Origin: a virus
Taxonomy: Duplodnaviria; Heunggongvirae; Uroviricota; Caudoviricetes
Virus record (IMG/VR): IMGVR_UViG_2698536506_000009
Length of the DNA: 23,022 nucleotides
Reading direction: 5' to 3' (one strand)
This document shows, in pieces, positions 20-8,354 of the stretch. The position numbers were made by a program, and so were the translations under genes. The notes under the pieces are model-generated. The model was given only the letters and a program-made list of their open reading frames with translations. It was not told where the DNA came from and did no database searches. The first letter of the stretch is position 1; the number at the start of each line of letters is the position of its first letter.

Positions 20-1315
20 TTAATTTTTCATTGCTTCGTTATGGGGCATGGTTGGGGCAAACTCGCTTAACTGTGTATTTAACAAAGCTACCTGTGCATT
101 ATTGTTTTCAGACATCCATTTTCCGTATACCTGAAATACCATTTGCGCATCTGCATGGCCCATCTGGTTTGCTATAAATGCCGGGTTAGCACCAGCTGTC
201 AGCGACCAGCAGGCATAAGTATGTCTCGACTGATATGATTTTCGATGGCGGAGTCCGGCACGTTTTATCGCTGCGTCCCACATCTGCCTTATTGAGTCAA
301 CGGTAAAATGGTCACCATAATTTTTTACTCTCGCTGACACTTCAGGTTGAAAAACAAAGGTGCATTTTTGTTTTTCTGTTCTGCCATACTCTCTGAGGTG
401 AACATCAATGATATGCTCTTTGCTCAGTCTCGTTAATGTCATCTGACTCCGGAGAGCGTCGATTGCTGGCTTAATAAGATGAATGACCCGATTGGTTCCC
501 GCCTGTGTTTTTGGTACCGTGAAACGGTCTTTTGCTAAATTTCTCCTGATCATCATTGTTCCATTTTTCAGATCTATGTCCTCCCATCCAAGTGCACACA
601 GCTCACCAGGGCGAACTCCAGTATAAACAGAAACACACCATAAATTTTTTGCTTGCTGATTTCTGCACGCATCGATAAGACGGATAAATTCTTCCCGCGA
701 AAGAGGATCCGGAATGGTTCTTGATTCCTTTAATGGCGAGATCCCCTTAAACGGATTATCTGCCAGGTAACCGTTATCAACACCAAACTGGAACACGGCG
801 TTAAGATTTGTCATGTAATTATTTACAGTTACAGCCGATCTCCCTGGTTGTGTAACAATATAGTTACTTTTGGGGATCTGGTATCCAGTCAGTAACTCTT
901 TACGAACCTCCAGTAATTTTTCTTTATTAATCGATGAGGCAAGATTTTTTTCACCGATTATGCTCAGGATATTTTTGATGACGGCACGGTATGTGTTGAG
1001 TGATGTTTTGGCGACTTCAGTTTCTTTCAGTGCCAGAAATTTTTCAGCCAGTTCTTTTATGGTTAAATCTTGTCGGGCCTCACCAAATTTTTCCAGATTG
1101 CGTGAGGAGGGAAACTGTTTTGCATAGTCGAAAACACCAGTTTTTATTGCGTAACAAACAGAGGAGCGTAGTTCACCTGCAACGCGCCTGTTTTTTGCTG
1201 TGTCAGGAACCCCCAGATTTTCCCTGACTCTTACGTCTTTATAAACAAACCAGATACGTAATTTCCCTCCATGGTTTTCCACGCCTGTCGGATATTTCAT
1301 TTCAACTTCTCTCAT
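20..1315 (-). CDS. int: Tyrosine integrase, lambda family (Rac IntR-like)
   Basis: 431-aa ORF whose C-terminal region carries ...RKSYQSRHTYACWSLTAGANP...QMGHA..., which I recognise as the catalytic region of lambda-family integrases. Start may be the second Met (1300). It sits at the prophage end beside an excisionase-like gene. Confidence 0.85.
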   Translation of the reverse strand: MREVEMKYPTGVENHGGKLRIWFVYKDVRVRENLGVPDTAKNRRVAGELRSSVCYAIKTGVFDYAKQFPSSRNLEKFGEARQDLTIKELAEKFLALKETEVAKTSLNTYRAVIKNILSIIGEKNLASSINKEKLLEVRKELLTGYQIPKSNYIVTQPGRSAVTVNNYMTNLNAVFQFGVDNGYLADNPFKGISPLKESRTIPDPLSREEFIRLIDACRNQQAKNLWCVSVYTGVRPGELCALGWEDIDLKNGTMMIRRNLAKDRFTVPKTQAGTNRVIHLIKPAIDALRSQMTLTRLSKEHIIDVHLREYGRTEKQKCTFVFQPEVSARVKNYGDHFTVDSIRQMWDAAIKRAGLRHRKSYQSRHTYACWSLTAGANPAFIANQMGHADAQMVFQVYGKWMSENNNAQVALLNTQLSEFAPTMPHNEAMKN

Positions 1316-1658: not shown

Positions 1659-3680
1659 TTAAGAATCAGCCTGACTCGGGATCAGTTTTTGCCAGATAAC
1701 TGAAACGTATTTTGCCTGGTAACGGGCGTCATCAAGTGCATTATGGCGCTCACCTTCGAATGGAATAGCCGTTCTGGCATCGAAGTCTATGGCTTTCCCC
1801 AGCTCAACGATTGTGCGTACATCGCGATCGTTGTAGTAACGCCACGGGCAGGGGATCCCCTGCCGTTCGTATGAACGGCGCAAAATCGTGTTGTCGAAGT
1901 TGGCTCCATTTCCCCAAACCTGAACAAAAAATTCACCGGAGTTTTCGTCGATAAATTCTCGCAATTGTAACAGTGCATCATCTAACGGGATTTCATCGGT
2001 CATAATGGCAGATTGCGCTTCGCGTGATTGCTTAAGCCACCATTTAATGGTGTCCCGATCAATGACTCCGCCAGCAGTTTCCAGATCGATAGTCTTACTA
2101 AATTCCGGTCCCATATCTCCGGTTTGCGGATCGAAAAATATTGCACCTATTGAGATGATCGGGGCATCAGGATTTTTTCCCATGGTTTCAAGGTCGATCA
2201 TTAGATGGTCACACGTCCTGCTGGTGGATGTGATTTCGTGATGACCGTTCACCTTAATTGGGTGATCTGCCGTCTCGCCAGTTTCATTATCGCTATTGTG
2301 ATGCTGATTGCCGCCAGTGTTCTCCTTGTGTGGATGTTCAGCGCCTTCCATTTCCTCCGGATCATCTTCCTGAACTTCAACCTGATACTCTTCATCGAAT
2401 GTTTCTTGGTATGTTGCGTCGCCCATCACCGCGCCACAATCAGGGCAGTTGCCGCCGCCGGTCTGACCGCAGGCGGTGCAGACTTTTTCCACTTCCTGTT
2501 GCGCTACTGGTTCAGGCTGTTTCGTTTCTGGCTCGTTTTGTAACGCATTTGGACTGTTTTGTTCCGCTTTTTGGTAGTTCCGTTCCGATTCATGCTGGTT
2601 CTGGTTCACAGAATCGCGGGTCTGGAGCCCCTTAACCCATTTCGGATCATTCGGGTCACTAATCCCTTCAACAAATTCACCACGTGATGCAGCAAGCAAC
2701 TTATCGGCGTCAGGCTGGCTGATATTGGCTGCCTGCATAATTTTGTTTACTTCGTCAGCGGTAACTTTTATCGGCTCTGGTTGTTCTGAATCTTCAGCGG
2801 TATCTACATTTTGCGGTAAGCCCGTGTATGTGCCATTTTTTCGGGCAAAATATTCTTCTTTTGTGATTTCAGTGGCGCCAGCAGCCAGTGCCTTATCCAG
2901 ACCAGAGAGTTTGTTTGCGCGACCGTATTTTTCTCCGTCCTTATCTGCGAAGAGGAAATAGAACGGCCCCTCACGCTCTACAGATGGTTCAGCTTCCGGC
3001 GCGGTTTCATTTTTTGGGATATCAGATACCTCAGTTTCCACTGCATCAGTTTGTGTTTCTGATGACTGGAGAACATCAACAGTGCCCAGGTCTGTTTCTT
3101 CATTCTCAAACACGCCCTTTGTCGTCAGGTATTCGCAGATATATTTGTTCAGTGCTACGGGATCTTTGTGAATGTCGATCGGACGCTCACGGACAAGGCC
3201 AAAAATAGTTTGGCGGTCGTAGCGAAGGGCATCAGGCTGTTTGCGCATTGATGCCGAGATACGCTTCCAGTCTTCGCGGTCGTTGTCGATAACTTCTTTT
3301 TTTGCCCAGCGATGGATGCTGCCGTCAATGTTTCCGGCATCCACATCACTAGGCCAGAGAGCGTAGGCCAGTTCGTCATCCAGTGTTTTCCATGTCTGCT
3401 TGTATTCGCGATGAATGGCAGCAATGACCGGGCTGATTTTTCCTGTTGAATTTTCAGTGTACTGTTGATTGGCTCTGGCGCGGGCGAGATCAACAACAGA
3501 CGTGTATTTTCCGGTTTCCTTGCGTTCACCTTCGCGACGTTTTTTCCAGATGCGCATCTCTGCCTGAATTTCGGGCCATTTAGCACCAGGAATACATTTA
3601 TGCTTAACCCACCCAATGGCGTGCAACTTAAGCTCCGGATATTCGAAGTGGACGATGACGCAACACCTGAGGAAATTCAT
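1659..3680 (-). CDS. Multidomain putative 3'-5' exonuclease (DnaQ-like DEDDh C-terminal domain)
   Basis: 673-aa ORF. C-terminus has MIDLETMG, VWGNGANFDNTIL and HNALDDARYQA, consistent with DEDDh exonuclease motifs. The middle is an acidic low-complexity linker with a CxxC-x8-CxxC pair (CTACGQTGGGNCPDCG). The annotated start codon overlaps a plus-strand ATG (CATG at 3678-3681), so the true start may lie downstream, e.g. the Met at 3557. Confidence 0.7.
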   Translation of the reverse strand: MNFLRCCVIVHFEYPELKLHAIGWVKHKCIPGAKWPEIQAEMRIWKKRREGERKETGKYTSVVDLARARANQQYTENSTGKISPVIAAIHREYKQTWKTLDDELAYALWPSDVDAGNIDGSIHRWAKKEVIDNDREDWKRISASMRKQPDALRYDRQTIFGLVRERPIDIHKDPVALNKYICEYLTTKGVFENEETDLGTVDVLQSSETQTDAVETEVSDIPKNETAPEAEPSVEREGPFYFLFADKDGEKYGRANKLSGLDKALAAGATEITKEEYFARKNGTYTGLPQNVDTAEDSEQPEPIKVTADEVNKIMQAANISQPDADKLLAASRGEFVEGISDPNDPKWVKGLQTRDSVNQNQHESERNYQKAEQNSPNALQNEPETKQPEPVAQQEVEKVCTACGQTGGGNCPDCGAVMGDATYQETFDEEYQVEVQEDDPEEMEGAEHPHKENTGGNQHHNSDNETGETADHPIKVNGHHEITSTSRTCDHLMIDLETMGKNPDAPIISIGAIFFDPQTGDMGPEFSKTIDLETAGGVIDRDTIKWWLKQSREAQSAIMTDEIPLDDALLQLREFIDENSGEFFVQVWGNGANFDNTILRRSYERQGIPCPWRYYNDRDVRTIVELGKAIDFDARTAIPFEGERHNALDDARYQAKYVSVIWQKLIPSQADS

Positions 3681-3741: not shown

Positions 3742-3933
3742 ATGAGGAAGAACAAAGTGGCTGATTTTTGTTCAGCTAAATATAACATCAGTTTTGAAGA
3801 GCGGGATGAACTATTAATGGACTATGGTGAGTTACGCGGTGGAAGTGCTGCTGATGTCGAATCCTAGCGTGATGACTATGAAGCGGGAAAAACTCCGGTC
3901 GAAGCATATTGTGATGAGTGGGGCGATGAATGA
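3742..3933 (+). pseudogene. Short ORF interrupted by an in-frame TAG (41 codons, TAG at 3865-3867, 21 more codons)
   Basis: Purine-rich sense-like codon usage on the plus strand. The reading frame continues in phase across the TAG to a TGA that overlaps the next ORF start (ATGA). No convincing SD. Function unknown. Confidence 0.3.
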
Positions 3934-4217
3934 GCGAGATTAATTATCAGGAAGGGCATGAAACGGCGGGGCAAGCAAAACCAGTGGCATGGCGATATCG
4001 CTACGTGAAAAAAGGCGTTACGGACTTTCAGGGGAAGTAGTGGTCTGGTGACTGGAAATATGTACCGAAAAAAGAGGATTGTAACGACAGGCCGAACTAT
4101 CAAATTCAGGCCTTATTCACTGCCTCACCAGTCCCAGTTACATCAGAAGAACTGGTTAAAGCTGTGCACTTTTATGAACAACTAAAACGCGAAAATCCAC
4201 CAACATCCGGCAACTAG
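3930..4217 (+). pseudogene. Short ORF interrupted by an in-frame TAG (36 codons, TAG at 4038-4040, 58 more codons)
   Basis: Translation MSEINYQEGHETAGQAKPVAWRYRYVKKGVTDFQGK, stop, WSGDWKYVPKKEDCNDRPNYQIQALFTASPVPVTSEELVKAVHFYEQLKRENPPTSGN. Protein-like composition on both sides of the TAG; the antisense frame is compositionally implausible. Confidence 0.35.
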
Positions 4218-4471
4218 ATTAATGGATTAACTATGTCGGTTAAACGACCAGCCAACTGAAAAAGCGGAAACCTGATTACAGGTTGCCAGATAAGGCAATG
4301 AGCTACCTGGCGCGGAACGGACTGATAAGTATGGGGAATGTTTTACGATGAACCTTTAGACTAAAGAGTTTGTAACGCTATGTAAGTGATTTTTTCTGGT
4401 TTAGATATTTATATGTCCGGCCAAATTGAGGTGTGTTTAAATGTAATTGCACATTGATTGTAGGAGGAATA

Positions 4472-4651
4472 ATGAAAAACGCATTGCAGTTTTTGTTTGT
4501 TGCGTTCTGGTTGTTCGCATCATGTATGCCCATCATCTTCACAGCAAGGTATATGGAAAAAGTTGATGTTTTGATATTAATATTTGGATATATAAATGCC
4601 CTTTTTTTAGGGGTGTTCATGGCGGTCATGTGCATTGAATACTGGCGGTAA
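4472..4651 (+). CDS. Small hydrophobic protein, two predicted transmembrane helices (59 aa)
   Basis: AGGAGG at 4462-4467, 4 nt before the ATG. Sequence MKNALQFLFVAFWLFASCMPIIFTARYMEKVDVLILIFGYINALFLGVFMAVMCIEYWR has two hydrophobic segments separated by a short polar loop. Confidence 0.5.
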   Translation: MKNALQFLFVAFWLFASCMPIIFTARYMEKVDVLILIFGYINALFLGVFMAVMCIEYWR

Positions 4652-4899
4652 ATACAGCGAACTCCATTGGTTTAGTTGGATATTTACTGTGCTGGACAAA
4701 AACGGTTTGCGGGGAAATCTTAGTTAAGTAGAATGACTGCGGGTGCTTGAGGCTATCTGCCTCGGGCATGGACACCAACGGCAGATAGAGAAAAGCCCCA
4801 GTTAACATTACGCGTCCTGCAAGACGCTTAACATTAATCTGAGGCCAATTTCATGCTAGACACATGTAGGTTAGCCTCTTACGTGCCGAAAGGCACGGA

Positions 4900-6450
4900 G
4901 AAGCAGGCTATTGTTAACACCAAGCTGTAATGTCCCCTTTGAACCATTCTAAAATGTCCCCAGACAATTCTCTGGGGGATTTTTCATGATCAAAGAGACT
5001 GTTACGATGAGTCATAAGGAACTCCACCGACTTCAGATTATTCAGGAACAAGCTGCGGCACGCATTGGCATTTCTATTCGGCAGGTTAAACGTCTGGTGC
5101 AACGGTATAGAAATGAAGGGCCTTCTGGTCTGGTTTCCCACCGACGTGGAAAGCGTCCTAATAATTCCTTTTCTACTGAATTCAGAGCAACAGTAATTTC
5201 ACTCCTCAAAGGCCGTTACGCTGATTTTGGACCTACGTTTGCGTGCGAAAAATTGCGCGAGATACACGGTTTATCTTTATCCGTTGAAACTCTCAGAAAG
5301 TGGATGATAGAAGAGGGGTTATGGCGTGAACGCCGTCGTAAAATTGCCCGTATATATCAACGCCGCATGCGACGACCATCTTACGGTGAACTGATCCAGA
5401 TTGATGGCTCACCTCATGACTGGTTTGAAAATCGAGGCCCCAGATGTACACTGATCGTTTTCATTGATGATGCCACCAGTGCGTTGATGGCGTTGCGTTT
5501 TGTGCCTGCTGAAACAACCCGGGCTTACATGGAAACCCTCCGGGGTTACCTTAATGATCATGGCGTACCGCTCGCTCTCTACTCTGATAGACACAGTATA
5601 TTCAGGGTAAATAACCCAGAGCGGGAAGGTGAGCTGACCCAGTTCACTCGTGCGATAAAGACACTGGGCATCGAGCCAATCCATGCCAACAGCCCGCAGG
5701 CAAAAGGGCGGGTAGAGCGCGCCAATCAGACACTACAGGACAGGCTGGTCAAAGAAATGCGGCTTCAGAATATCAGTGATATTGAAACAGCAAATGCATG
5801 GTTGCCGACCTTTATTGAAGCCTATAACAACCGGTTCGCTACGTCGCCTCGTACTACTGATAATGCTCATCTTGATGTGCACCATTCTGAAGAGGAACTG
5901 GGTTATATCTTCAGCCTACAGGCGAAGCGCGTTCTGTCTAAAAATCTCACTTTCCAGTACAAAAGCAGTGCGTTTCAGGTACGCAGTGAGGGCCGGGGAT
6001 ATCGACTTAGGCATTCGGTTGTTACTGTATGCGAGAACTTTGACGGTGAAATTAACGTTCTGTATGACGGGAAAGCGCTGGGCTGGGAAAAGTATGTTGA
6101 TGGCCCGGAGCCTATACCACTGGATGATGAAAAGAGTGTCCATGAACGAGTGGATAATGCCCGTATTGATTTACGCTCAAAATACTATGTTAAACCTAAA
6201 GCTGACCATCCCTGGCTTACGCGCCGAACGCAAAGTCATCAGCAAGTTAAGCCCCCGAAGTTACCTAAAAAGAAGCCTGATCCCGATAAAAAAGATTGAA
6301 ACCAAGATCGATTCGGTTGAGTGCATATCCATTCATAGGGTAGATTCTTAAGTCGCGTTTCTGGTGTTCATTTTCGGGTGGTTTGTTACTTGTTTTACCG
6401 GGGATATGCCAGAAACGCGCTGAGTCAGTCTGGGCGGTGCGCGTAATGAG
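4900..6450 (+). mobile_element. Insertion sequence carrying the rve transposase (boundaries approximate)
   Basis: Single transposase ORF flanked by non-coding sequence. I could not identify terminal inverted repeats or a target duplication by eye; only an 8-bp AGGCTATT / AATAGCCT pair (about 4903 and 6462), which could be chance. Confidence 0.3.
4986..6299 (+). CDS. DDE transposase with retroviral-integrase-like (rve) core and N-terminal HTH
   Basis: 437-aa ORF with an N-terminal HTH-like region (RIGISIRQVKRLVQRY), candidate catalytic D in IQIDGS, D in LYSDRHSIF, and the rve hallmark NSPQAKGRVERANQTLQ. Family (IS481-like or ISNCY-like) not resolved. Confidence 0.85.
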   Translation: MIKETVTMSHKELHRLQIIQEQAAARIGISIRQVKRLVQRYRNEGPSGLVSHRRGKRPNNSFSTEFRATVISLLKGRYADFGPTFACEKLREIHGLSLSVETLRKWMIEEGLWRERRRKIARIYQRRMRRPSYGELIQIDGSPHDWFENRGPRCTLIVFIDDATSALMALRFVPAETTRAYMETLRGYLNDHGVPLALYSDRHSIFRVNNPEREGELTQFTRAIKTLGIEPIHANSPQAKGRVERANQTLQDRLVKEMRLQNISDIETANAWLPTFIEAYNNRFATSPRTTDNAHLDVHHSEEELGYIFSLQAKRVLSKNLTFQYKSSAFQVRSEGRGYRLRHSVVTVCENFDGEINVLYDGKALGWEKYVDGPEPIPLDDEKSVHERVDNARIDLRSKYYVKPKADHPWLTRRTQSHQQVKPPKLPKKKPDPDKKD

Positions 6451-6735
6451 GCGTTATGGTAAATAGCCTATGCTAATGTCCGCTAAGAGCAAGAAGCGGA
6501 AGTTGGCAGTTTTGTGGACTGTCCCCACAAAAGTGACTACAGAAATAGTTGCAATTCATAATTGATCATGGGTTGTCAGTTAAACTCGTGGCGATTTAAA
6601 TAGACTAATTGGGAGTGCGTCCATTACTTATATCTTGTAATGTTAACTATCAGAAATGATACAAAGATAATATGTCTTTAAAGAAAAGGCTGATGGCGAA
6701 AAGTGGCCCGATGAGGGCCACAATACGGCTGTCAC

Positions 6736-7068
6736 TTAGACGTAAATATCAATGGTGCCAGCGGTATTTGTATCGTCTTTTTTCTCTTCTTTTTTATCAG
6801 GCTGAACTGTCGCGTCTTCATTCTTTTTCTCTGCCTGCTGCCTTAACAACTGCTCCAGTTGAGCCCAGAGGCTTTCAATTTGCTTCTGTACCAATGCAGC
6901 CATTTCTTTTTTCTGCTGTGTCGTCATCCCCTCTTCCGATGAGATTTTCCCAAGCTTTTCAGTCAGCACCTGAATTTGTCTTGTGATTTTGGCTATTTCT
7001 GATGTTCCTTCCGGGGCGGAGTTGTTTGAAATAACGGTTGAGGTATTTCCCTGAATTGTGACAGACAT
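6736..7068 (-). CDS. flxA: FlxA-like protein
   Basis: 110-aa ORF MSVTIQGNTSTVISNN...TAGTIDIYV matching my recollection of FlxA in length and sequence, preceded by a near-consensus sigma-28 promoter. Confidence 0.8.
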   Translation of the reverse strand: MSVTIQGNTSTVISNNSAPEGTSEIAKITRQIQVLTEKLGKISSEEGMTTQQKKEMAALVQKQIESLWAQLEQLLRQQAEKKNEDATVQPDKKEEKKDDTNTAGTIDIYV

Positions 7069-7091
7069 AGATTTCTCCTTTTAAAAAAGCA

Positions 7092-7118
7092 CTATCGGCA
7101 TGCACAAAAAAATCTTTA
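7092..7118 (-). promoter_or_regulatory. Sigma-28 (FliA) type promoter for flxA
   Basis: Minus strand reads TAAAGATT, 11 nt, GCCGATAG against consensus TAAAGTTT-N11-GCCGATAA. The -10 complement is at 7092-7099 and the -35 at 7111-7118. GGAG sits 6 nt before the flxA ATG. Confidence 0.6.
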
Positions 7119-7270
7119 ATCGTATTTCTTGTGTCATTAATTGTTTGATGTTCAGATTGTTTTCCTCGCGGGCTGGCGCGCCTCAGAAAGTAAAGCTTGT
7201 TGACAGGGGTAAACGTTCGGCAATAATTTTCTGCCGCATGCGGGTGTTGCATAAAACGTGTTACGTTCCT

Positions 7271-7576
7271 TTATCGACAGGTCAGGTCACCGCTCACCCG
7301 CCGACGAGAAAGCAACACTGACATGCTAAAGCAAAAAATAGATGAATAAGTTGAGTTGTGCATATGTAGCCTGACCGTCACAAAGTATATGGTGTCTGTA
7401 CCAGTAAGATGATGGCCGGACTCTTTAAAAACGAGCTGACCTGCACAATACAGGATGGACTTAGCAATGGCTGCTCCTGGCACAAAGCGGACAGTGATCA
7501 CCGTTCTTACGACTACTTTCTGACTTCCTTCGTGACTTGCCCTAAGCATGTTGTAGTGCGATACTTGTAATGACAT
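7271..7576 (-). CDS. ydfV: Hypothetical protein (YdfV-like)
   Basis: 101-aa ORF between flxA and relB, divergent from relB, matching the K-12 Qin position and length of ydfV as I recall them. Confidence 0.55.
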   Translation of the reverse strand: MSLQVSHYNMLRASHEGSQKVVVRTVITVRFVPGAAIAKSILYCAGQLVFKESGHHLTGTDTIYFVTVRLHMHNSTYSSIFCFSMSVLLSRRRVSGDLTCR

Positions 7577-7589
7577 TTGTAATTACAAG
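7564..7589 (+). promoter_or_regulatory. relBE operator/promoter palindrome
   Basis: CTTGTAATGACATTTGTAATTACAAG lies immediately upstream of relB, with repeated TTGTAAT hexads and inverted arms CTTGTAAT / ATTACAAG, consistent with RelB-RelE autoregulation. Confidence 0.5.
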
Positions 7590-7600
7590 AGGTGTAAGAC

Positions 7601-7840
7601 ATGGGTAGCATTAACCTGCGTATTGACGATGAACTTAAAGCGCGTTCTTACGCCGCGCTTGAAAAAATGGGTGTAACTCCTTCTGAAGCGCTTCGTCTCA
7701 TGCTCGAGTATATCGCTGACAATGAACGCTTGCCGTTCAAACAGACACTCCTGAGTGATGAAGATGCTGAACTTGTGGAGATAGTGAAAGAACGGCTTCG
7801 TAATCCTAAGCCAGTACGTGTGACGCTGGATGAACTCTGA
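7601..7840 (+). CDS. relB: RelB antitoxin
   Basis: 79-aa ORF MGSINLRIDDELKARSYA...RVTLDEL. Its stop overlaps the relE start (ATGA). Confidence 0.9.
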   Translation: MGSINLRIDDELKARSYAALEKMGVTPSEALRLMLEYIADNERLPFKQTLLSDEDAELVEIVKERLRNPKPVRVTLDEL

Positions 7841-8127
7841 TGGCGTATTTTCTGGATTTTGACGAGCGGGCACTAAAGGAATGGCGAAAGCTGGGCTCGA
7901 CGGTACGTGAACAGTTGAAAAAGAAGCTGGTTGAAGTACTTGAGTCACCCCGGATTGAAGCAAACAAGCTCCGTGGTATGCCTGATTGTTACAAGATTAA
8001 GCTCCGGTCTTCAGGCTATCGCCTTGTATACCAGGTTATAGACGAGAAAGTTGTCGTTTTCGTGATTTCTGTTGGGAAAAGAGAACGCTCGGAAGTATAT
8101 AGCGAGGCGGTCAAACGCATTCTCTGA
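7840..8127 (+). CDS. relE: RelE mRNA interferase toxin
   Basis: 95-aa ORF MAYFLDFDERALKEWRKLG...SEAVKRIL, translationally coupled to relB. Confidence 0.9.
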   Translation: MAYFLDFDERALKEWRKLGSTVREQLKKKLVEVLESPRIEANKLRGMPDCYKIKLRSSGYRLVYQVIDEKVVVFVISVGKRERSEVYSEAVKRIL

Positions 8128-8198
8128 ACCAAAGCATGACATCTCTGTTTCGCACCGAAGGTGACACTTCTGCTTTGCGTTGACAGGAGAAGCAGGCT

Positions 8199-8354
8199 AT
8201 GAAGCAGCAAAAGGCGATGTTAATCGCCCTGATCGTCATCTGTTTAACCGTCATAGTGACGGCACTGGTAACGAGGAAAGACCTCTGCGAGGTACGAATC
8301 CGAACCGGCCAGACGGAGGTCGCTGTCTTCACAGCTTACGAACCTGAGGAGTAA
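8199..8354 (+). CDS. hokD: Hok-family small membrane toxin (HokD/RelF)
   Basis: 51-codon ORF, too short for the supplied track: MKQQKAMLIALIVICLTVIVTALVTRKDLCEVRIRTGQTEVAVFTAYEPEE. One TM helix and conserved Hok C-terminus, directly downstream of relE. Confidence 0.85.
   Translation: MKQQKAMLIALIVICLTVIVTALVTRKDLCEVRIRTGQTEVAVFTAYEPEE

Follow-up and report, generated by a model that had tools for sequence, protein, structure and literature searches.

The DNA analysed here, called the window throughout, is the whole 23,022-nt stretch of the IMG/VR virus record IMGVR_UViG_2698536506_000009 and is a Qin-like lambdoid prophage of Escherichia coli without the immunity and replication region. In its early-right (nin-like) region, we place a small AT-rich cassette between an early gene of the phrog_660 family and a hok/sok locus, and this cassette carries a plus-strand open reading frame (ORF) for a 59-aa protein, the target of the present analysis (Table 1). 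A first-pass annotation of this DNA had described the ORF as short, very hydrophobic and two-helix, with a consensus AGGAGG Shine-Dalgarno (SD) sequence in a degraded region, and this description fits what we found: the product has a grand average of hydropathy (GRAVY) of 1.27 and two helices in an AlphaFold2 model, and the stretch upstream, 3742-4351, consists of pseudogenised early genes with a TAG codon and frameshifts. The span proposed at that time, 4462-4651, has the correct end, with the TAA stop codon at 4649-4651, but not the correct start, as 4462 belongs to the SD and the coding sequence (CDS) runs from its ATG at 4472-4474. The sequence around the SD and the start of the ORF reads tgattgtAGGAGGaataATGaaaaac.

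The combination of AGGAGG, a start codon and an ORF of at least 40 aa occurs a single time in the whole window, both strands included, and with the minimum length set to 55 aa, block shuffles give an expectation of 0.16 such ORFs per window. Taken alone, the SD and ORF are thus weakly non-random, which is suggestive but falls short of being conclusive. The plus strand of the target region is T-rich (AT skew -0.13 to -0.24), and the GC content of 4350-4720 is 33-39%, compared to 45-53% in both flanks. Since T-rich DNA automatically yields a hydrophobic translation, gene status had to rest on comparison with other sequences.

An exhaustive phmmer/HMMER search of 1.84 billion representative proteins retrieved, besides near-identical copies, one distinct relative, P0037 (MRKILVYLCISIWIVISCVPIILTSEYLTEASRMALMFGHANALCIGVFISIIYIECWR), which is also 59 aa long and is 41% identical to the target (E = 1.2e-8). 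The usual variant of this paralogue, P0042, is present on at least 1000 contigs. We refer to the target and its near-identical copies as clade 1 and to the paralogue as clade 2. Clade 2 occupies one fixed chromosomal site in 1045/5426 complete E. coli genomes (19%), where it is unannotated in the RefSeq records sampled. The site lies next to ttcA, the Rac attachment site, within a decayed prophage remnant flanked by a fragment of an integrase on one side and by a sitD-like permease gene with a frameshift on the other.

The comparison of the two clades provides clear support for a gene. From ATG to TAA, the 60-codon alignment is free of gaps, while the flanks require several indels to be aligned. 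Identity between the clades at codon positions 1, 2 and 3 is 58, 69 and 47%, respectively, which is the order expected of coding sequence (2 > 1 > 3). With the Nei-Gojobori method applied to the plus-strand frame, the proportions of nonsynonymous (pN) and synonymous (pS) differences are 0.35 and 0.70, with a dN/dS of ~0.24; the remaining five frames give ratios of 0.5-1.3 or contain stop codons. When the same 74 substitutions were placed at random with the observed spectrum in a neutral simulation, the probability of obtaining no stop codon was 0.036, that of a pN/pS as low as the observed one or lower was 0.008, and the joint probability was ~1.5e-4. Because the two clades share their length, start and stop without indels and differ by a coding pattern of substitutions at this joint probability, the comparison shows that 4472-4651 is a protein-coding gene that evolved under purifying selection, a conclusion that applies to the deep divergence between the clades. 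The same comparison sets the start codon. The ORF listing extends the frame to an upstream GTG at 4433, for a product of 72 aa, and we take the ATG at 4472 as the start because this extension is not conserved, the paralogue having an in-frame stop 6 codons 5' of its aligned ATG. The SD itself is polymorphic, reading AGGGGG in 13 of 36 clade-1 haplotypes.

The ORF is intact in 146/146 full-length clade-1 loci and in 11/11 clade-2 loci, and its last third is 100% identical in 1542/1556 complete genomes (99.1%). Frameshifted protein variants at a T7 run, seen in short-read assemblies, are not borne out by these complete genomes. One apparent relative at 53% identity (locus L006) was excluded for its scattered single-base indels, seemingly the product of an error-rich assembly. 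Invariant between the clades are W13, S17, C18, P20, I21, I22, T24, F38, G39, N42, A43, L44, E56, W58 and R59, and G47 is kept in the consensus of both.

At 95% identity or more, the ORF region is found in 1568/5426 complete E. coli genomes (~29%). ATCC 8739 and ATCC 25922 are two strains with clade 1. PGAP left the clade-1 ORF unannotated in all of the ~70 RefSeq rows sampled; other pipelines predict the plus-strand protein on more than 1000 contigs, always under the names "hypothetical" or "membrane protein". Three phage records carry the clade-1 ORF, including that of vB_EcoS-640R1, in which the neighbour genes of the ORF and hok are intact. Two of the three, PV340562 and ON470612, instead annotate an 85-aa ORF on the opposite strand, once as "hornerin". 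This minus-strand ORF (4378-4635) has 2 stops in the paralogue and a pN/pS of ~0.9 and is almost certainly spurious. No third lineage was retrieved by a profile search of 5.8 billion proteins, by phmmer against the 1.84 billion representatives or by back-translated DNA scans of GTDB genomes, IMG/VR and metagenomes. Within the reach of these searches, the family appears to consist of two clades confined to lambdoid prophages of E. coli and Shigella. Peptide strings of the target had no match in the literature searched, and no upstream ORF is mentioned in the parts covered of the hokW-sokW paper and of a 2026 Hok survey.

Phage vB_EcoS-689R5 provides an example of the same locus in the empty state. 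It has the same end of the phrog_660 gene (...NGLISVEDILR*) and the same hok promoter and leader, joined by 73 unrelated GC-rich bp where the window has the 342 AT-rich bp of 4352-4693. These 73 bp were considered as a deletion remnant of the gene and have no significant similarity to it. Among hok-bearing phage records, 115/118 are without the target gene, and their homology to the locus starts only at the hok promoter. Because 689R5 lacks the cassette and the homology of nearly all hok phages begins only at that promoter, the alignments identify the gene as an add-on that related phages lack, carried in a moron-like cassette. Morons are known from lambdoid phages, e.g., HK97 gp15, lambda bor and lambda lom, reportedly described by Juhala/Hendrix in 2000 and Cumby in 2012. 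Like a moron, the cassette is extra DNA between genes that are adjacent in a related phage, deviates in base composition from its flanks and encodes one small membrane-targeted protein retained in prophages. The scans made recognised no promoter or terminator of its own, and its product has no similarity to a known moron product.

A strict promoter scan of the cassette found nothing, though the same scan also misses the known hok promoter, and a relaxed scan found no promoter conserved between the clades, with minus-strand sites that are weak and not conserved. An extended -10 candidate, TGtTTAAAT at 4434-4442, is conserved in both clades and was rejected as the essential A at position 2 is absent. 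The leader RNA folds no better than shuffled sequences, with z of +0.26 to +0.52 for both clade-1 stretches and the clade-2 stretch over the start codon; the upstream clade-2 leader gave z of -1.4. At the upstream edge of the cassette lies the palindrome CTTTAG-a-CTAAAG, which in the aligned paralogue reads CTTCAG-t-CTGAAG with one compensatory change, and which may bind a protein or form a small hairpin.

Table 1. Coordinates of the target gene, its paralogue and neighbouring features; positions are those of the window unless another locus is named.
Feature	Position	Strand	Remarks
Integrase	20-1315	-	
673-aa protein, Rv2179c-like 3'-5' exonuclease domain	1659-3680	-	
Pseudogenised early genes phrog_1997, phrog_519, phrog_660	3742-4351		PHROG matches, translation
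phrog_660-family pseudogene ("amber-interrupted" frames of the first-pass annotation)	3930..4351	+	In-frame TAG 4038-4040, later frameshifts
AT-rich moron-like cassette carrying the gene	4352..4693	.	342 bp; composition, alignments, blastn boundaries
Palindrome CTTTAG-a-CTAAAG	4354..4366	.	13 nt, directly 3' of the upstream gene's stop codon
Shine-Dalgarno AGGAGG	4462..4467	+	4 nt 5' of ATG; polymorphic
CDS, predicted 59-aa two-helix membrane protein, clade 1 of two-clade family	4472..4651	+	MKNALQFLFVAFWLFASCMPIIFTARYMEKVDVLILIFGYINALFLGVFMAVMCIEYWR
Putative hok promoter TTGCGG-16 nt-TAGAAT	4707..4734	+	Relaxed scan, position relative to Rfam match; assigned by homology to hok loci
hok mRNA leader with mok start and sok region	4741..4911	+	Rfam RF01794 ("sok"), 104 bits, E 7e-24; cut at hok start codon
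IS1202-family (ISNCY) transposon-like unit	4912..8185	+	3274 bp; transposase 4986-6299, then ydfW, flxA, ydfV, relBE
Right duplication copy (8186-8200) and hokD/relF CDS (8199-8354)	8186..8354	+	Displaced coding half of hok locus
Lysozyme	13416-13949		Lysis cassette ~13.1-14.4 kb
Clade-2 paralogue	L087 829-1008; L088 ~7130-7310 (E. coli CU37RT-2, beside ttcA)		Decayed prophage remnant

Upstream of the cassette, the integrase and exonuclease genes directly abut the decayed nin-like early genes. The region lost between them includes dicA, dicC and an O-like gene, which are present in ATCC 8739 and in phage PhiR42_1. After the decayed genes, the order is the target ORF, an ISNCY-family transposase, flxA, ydfV, relBE, hokD, ydfU, Q and then lysozyme. 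Elsewhere in the window, Rfam detected two cspA-type thermoregulator leaders, those of the cspI/cspB-like cold-shock genes of Qin, and the IS009 small RNA (11758-12150, 14660-15045 and 19482-19680).

The stretch matching the decayed early genes is flagged as a pseudogene by PGAP in ATCC 8739. Phage vB_EcoS-640R1 has intact versions of these genes (L003 5198-5803), except that its third one also seems to be frameshifted, and relative to that phage the window has a 55-bp insertion near 4210-4265. The first-pass annotation had proposed that the 59-aa protein could be the active partner of an amber-interrupted pair formed by the upstream frames. This proposal did not survive the comparison: the frames are decayed ordinary early genes that phage 640R1 has intact, and 689R5 keeps the upstream gene family and hok, yet is without the target ORF. 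Nothing marks these early genes as a toxin-antitoxin pair.

The most relevant neighbour of the target gene, which the first-pass annotation had passed over, is instead the hok/sok locus downstream. The Rfam sok match, 4741-4912, begins on the same strand 90 nt 3' of the target stop codon, and the hok locus in Stx phages has ~91% nucleotide identity to that of the window. The hok promoter is still found beside the gene in each of the 146 full-length clade-1 loci. In clade 2, a remnant of the 3' half of hok lies ~55 nt downstream of the gene (73% identity over 94 nt, E = 2e-13); deletion has removed the hok promoter, leader and 5' coding sequence there, and the gene is kept. Because clade 2 also precedes a hok remnant, the order phrog_660 gene, target gene, hok is ancestral. 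Nevertheless, almost all hok phages are without the gene, clade 2 survives without hok, and in the window the interruption affects hok and not the gene, all of which speaks against functional dependence on hok: Hok works without the target gene, and the target gene persists without hok. As such, the gene is independent both of the upstream pseudogenes and of hok.

What splits the hok locus of the window is a transposon-like unit with TGT...ACA ends and imperfect terminal inverted repeats (21/28), whose insertion point is the hok start codon. Its 15-bp target duplication, GGAGAAGCAGGCTAT, is present at 4897-4911 and 8186-8200, so that 4741-4911 and 8199-8354 are two halves of one locus, and the duplication explains how hokD keeps an SD and ATG yet is without the mok/sok leader. 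In phage 640R1, the hok site is uninterrupted. The Hok encoded beside the gene in that phage starts with the same residues as the hokD of the window, and the two are presumably identical. The features of the unit match the long-duplication subgroup of the IS1202 family (PMC10132070). Integration of relBE into an ancestral hok/mok was noted earlier by Ramisetty and Santhosh 2016, as cited in PMC6379469; the literature passages searched contain no description of the ends of the transposon or of its duplication.

The product of the target gene is predicted to be an integral inner-membrane protein with two hydrophobic helices joined by a loop of 6-8 residues. GRAVY is 1.37 for the clade-2 protein, and an AlphaFold2 model generated from a nine-sequence alignment has helices at residues 2-26 and 28-58 with a predicted local distance difference test score (pLDDT) of 74; hydropathy and model, the transmembrane topology check that the first-pass annotation suggested, thus favour two hydrophobic helices. 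Both termini would be cytoplasmic, because positive charges lie at the initial MK or MRK and at the terminal R and the loop of clade 2 is acidic. The invariant residues map to faces of the helices: helix 1 carries W13 and S17-C18-x-P20-I21-I22, and helix 2 carries F38-G39-xx-N42-A43-L44-xx-G47, where a G-x3-A-x3-G small-residue zipper (G39-A43-G47) carries a buried Asn (N42). Small-residue motifs of this kind typically mediate tight helix packing, from which we infer that the protein may act through helix packing, either by self-association or by docking onto another inner-membrane protein. Near the C-terminus, codons 54 and 57 (window 4631-4642) encode Cys54 and Tyr57 in clade 1 and Tyr54 and Cys57 in clade 2, a swap one helical turn apart.

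Scans of the 59-aa protein against Pfam, PHROGs, NCBIfam and PADLOC gave no match even at E up to 10, and a profile search of PDB sequences gave none. Foldseek comparison of the AlphaFold2 model to BFVD retrieved only generic helical hairpins (best E 0.9). No similarity to toxin, holin, exclusion or defence families was detected in the family, structure and PADLOC searches. Because each sequence test was negative, the target is placed on sequence grounds outside Hok/Gef, GhoT/OrtT, the holins and the known exclusion or defence families, although it shares general features with each of them. Like Hok/Gef proteins (PF01848), it is a small hydrophobic inner-membrane prophage protein, encoded in the same orientation 90 nt 5' of the hok mRNA start. 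In contrast to Hok, which has ~50 aa, one helix and a periplasmic Cys-containing tail, it is non-homologous (0 Pfam families at E up to 10), has two predicted helices and is without a mok-like overlapping frame or a folded leader; no Sok-like antisense was detected in the Rfam scan, in which the match covers 4741-4912 and not the ORF. With type I toxins in general it shares a small size (<60 aa) and hydrophobicity, but its mRNA has no structure hiding the SD and folds like shuffled sequence. GhoT/OrtT, two-helix membrane toxins of 57 aa, are of nearly equal length and have the helical-hairpin topology predicted for the target; the target, however, does not match Pfam Toxin_GhoT_OrtT (E up to 10) and has no GhoS-like antitoxin gene nearby. 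The exclusion proteins T4 Imm and Rac SieB and the lipoproteins Cor and Llp are likewise products of very small phage membrane accessory genes persisting in prophages, some with a lipobox of the kind that the target possibly has, yet the target is similar to none of them in Pfam or PHROG, and no PADLOC defence model matches it. Class II holins and pinholins (S21-type) have two transmembrane helices, a small-residue zipper and ~60-70 aa; in contrast, the target is not beside an endolysin gene, has no charged C-terminal tail and matches no Pfam or PHROG holin.

We consider it very probable that 4472-4651 is a real membrane-protein gene in an add-on cassette. The full explanation, in which this gene also has an accessory role at the membrane, we hold to be the probable one, with clear reservations. 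The specific role is tentative: by analogy, the product may be a non-essential phage accessory protein that would alter the host membrane or a membrane protein in the early phase or in lysogeny, e.g., in superinfection exclusion. A benign or host-beneficial accessory membrane protein, such as an exclusion factor, seems the likeliest class, with low confidence in the specific role, and a stand-alone killer is rated less likely than an accessory protein.

Several observations weigh against this explanation. Within clade 1 (146 full-length loci, 36 haplotypes), neither indels nor stops occur in the ORF, but 7 of its 8 variable sites are nonsynonymous: A16V, V31I, I37M, Y40H, L44I, M53T and the rare Y57C, among which M37, H40 and C57 are the clade-2 residues at the same positions. 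Clade 2 has 4 nonsynonymous and 0 synonymous changes. Pooled over both clades, these changes number 11 nonsynonymous and 1 synonymous, which matches the 79% nonsynonymous expected under neutrality (p = 0.48), and the deficit of single-nucleotide polymorphisms in the ORF relative to the cassette flanks is only borderline (8/180 vs 21/208 bp, p = 0.051). Therefore, the constraint holds for the deep divergence and not for present copies, and the within-clade data do not demonstrate present-day constraint on the cryptic-prophage copies. Scans of the cassette turned up no convincing sigma-70 promoter or terminator in either clade, and the gene may be silent in this window because the lost immunity and replication region would supply the early rightward (pR-type) promoter. 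The searches made returned no homologue of known function, the functional assignment is by analogy, and since the two clades share one ancestral gene order, their linkage to hok counts as one event.

Could the ORF then be a chance product of T-rich DNA, or could the minus-strand 85-aa ORF be the true gene? The composition of the plus strand, the chance expectation of 0.16 per window, the blank PGAP annotation in the ~100 RefSeq genomes sampled, the neutral look of the within-clade substitutions and the opposite-strand calls in PV340562 and ON470612 are all compatible with such a view. It is nonetheless highly improbable given a paralogue with the same length, start and stop, no indels and a coding pattern at the joint probability given above, a minus-strand frame that is interrupted in that paralogue and has a pN/pS of ~0.9, and gene callers that predict the plus-strand protein on more than 1000 contigs. 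If the gene is real, its product might be a membrane-damaging toxin (type I-like or GhoT/OrtT-like) or a holin-like pore former, depolarising the inner membrane. Its size, hydrophobicity and two helices are comparable to those of the 57-aa GhoT/OrtT, helix 2 has the small-residue zipper with its polar Asn, the gene adjoins the hok/sok killer locus, and the best, non-significant fold matches in BFVD include holins and "membrane protein" entries. Against this, none of the family scans (Pfam, NCBIfam, PHROG, PADLOC) matched at E up to 10; the leader lacks structure (z 0.3-0.5) and leaves the consensus SD exposed, unlike type I toxin mRNAs; no Rfam family lies over 4340-4700, and no antisense promoter was detected in the scans; and the lysis cassette is 9 kb away. 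The usual companions of small toxins, i.e., a folded leader, an antisense RNA and an adjacent antitoxin gene, were absent in the scans made. The ORF is also intact in prophages without the repressor region and in 99% of 1556 genomes, and its persistence with a strong, exposed SD despite the lost immunity region argues weakly against a potent unregulated toxin. As a result, we regard a toxin or pore former as not very likely.

A lipoprotein, in which helix 1 would be a cleavable signal peptide and the mature protein would have 42 residues with a lipid-modified Cys18 and one C-terminal transmembrane helix, accounts for other features of the sequence. By inspection, a lipobox can be read as L-F-A-S-C18 in clade 1 and I-V-I-S-C18 in clade 2; K or R is found within the first 7 residues (K2 or R2K3), followed by six non-charged residues as in the rule of PROSITE PS00013, which places the lipobox at positions 15-35; and S17-C18 is invariant despite 41% overall identity. 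Small phage or plasmid lipoproteins to which it would then compare are the Cor/Llp exclusion proteins, the entericidins and the colicin lysis proteins. However, the rule is known to pick up ordinary transmembrane helices as false positives, the stretch that follows Cys18 (MPIIFTA / VPIILTS) is hydrophobic and modelled as part of a continuous helix 2-26, and the lipid-attachment models of Pfam gave no match, so that a lipoprotein appears unlikely. The remaining possibility is that the protein is a partner of Hok, whether a protein-level modulator, an immunity factor or a co-toxin of the adjacent hok/sok. In both clades, the gene immediately precedes a hok locus of the same orientation, and the hok promoter is kept beside the gene in 146/146 full-length clade-1 loci, but common descent explains this common synteny. 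A partnership is improbable when 115/118 hok phage records are without the gene, clade 2 keeps it with the hok promoter, leader and 5' half deleted, a 3.3-kb transposon splits the hok of the window with the gene untouched, and the Hok beside the gene in 640R1 begins as the hokD of the window does.

With the accessory membrane protein as the preferred explanation, the target represents a new, previously uncharacterised family whose kind is familiar, that of small membrane proteins encoded by morons, and it is of modest interest unless it proves to act in exclusion, as a toxin or in relation to Hok. If it is an exclusion factor or a toxin, it would found a new family of these; otherwise it adds to the list of phage accessory genes. 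That it encodes a new prophage membrane effector, i.e., an exclusion or abortive-infection determinant, or a protein-level modulator working with Hok, we think quite unlikely. Were this true, somewhere between a quarter and a half of E. coli genomes would retain the effector (29% with clade 1, 19% with clade 2), and with a Hok modulator a type I toxin-antitoxin locus would gain a protein component. The region holds two textbook toxin-antitoxin loci, hok/sok and relBE, along with a third membrane-active candidate, which matters for phenotypes attributed to Qin-like prophages. A conserved 59-aa gene present in ~29% of complete E. coli genomes, with a paralogue in 19%, has been overlooked by the RefSeq pipeline in all records sampled, which points to a blind spot for small proteins even in the best-studied bacterium.

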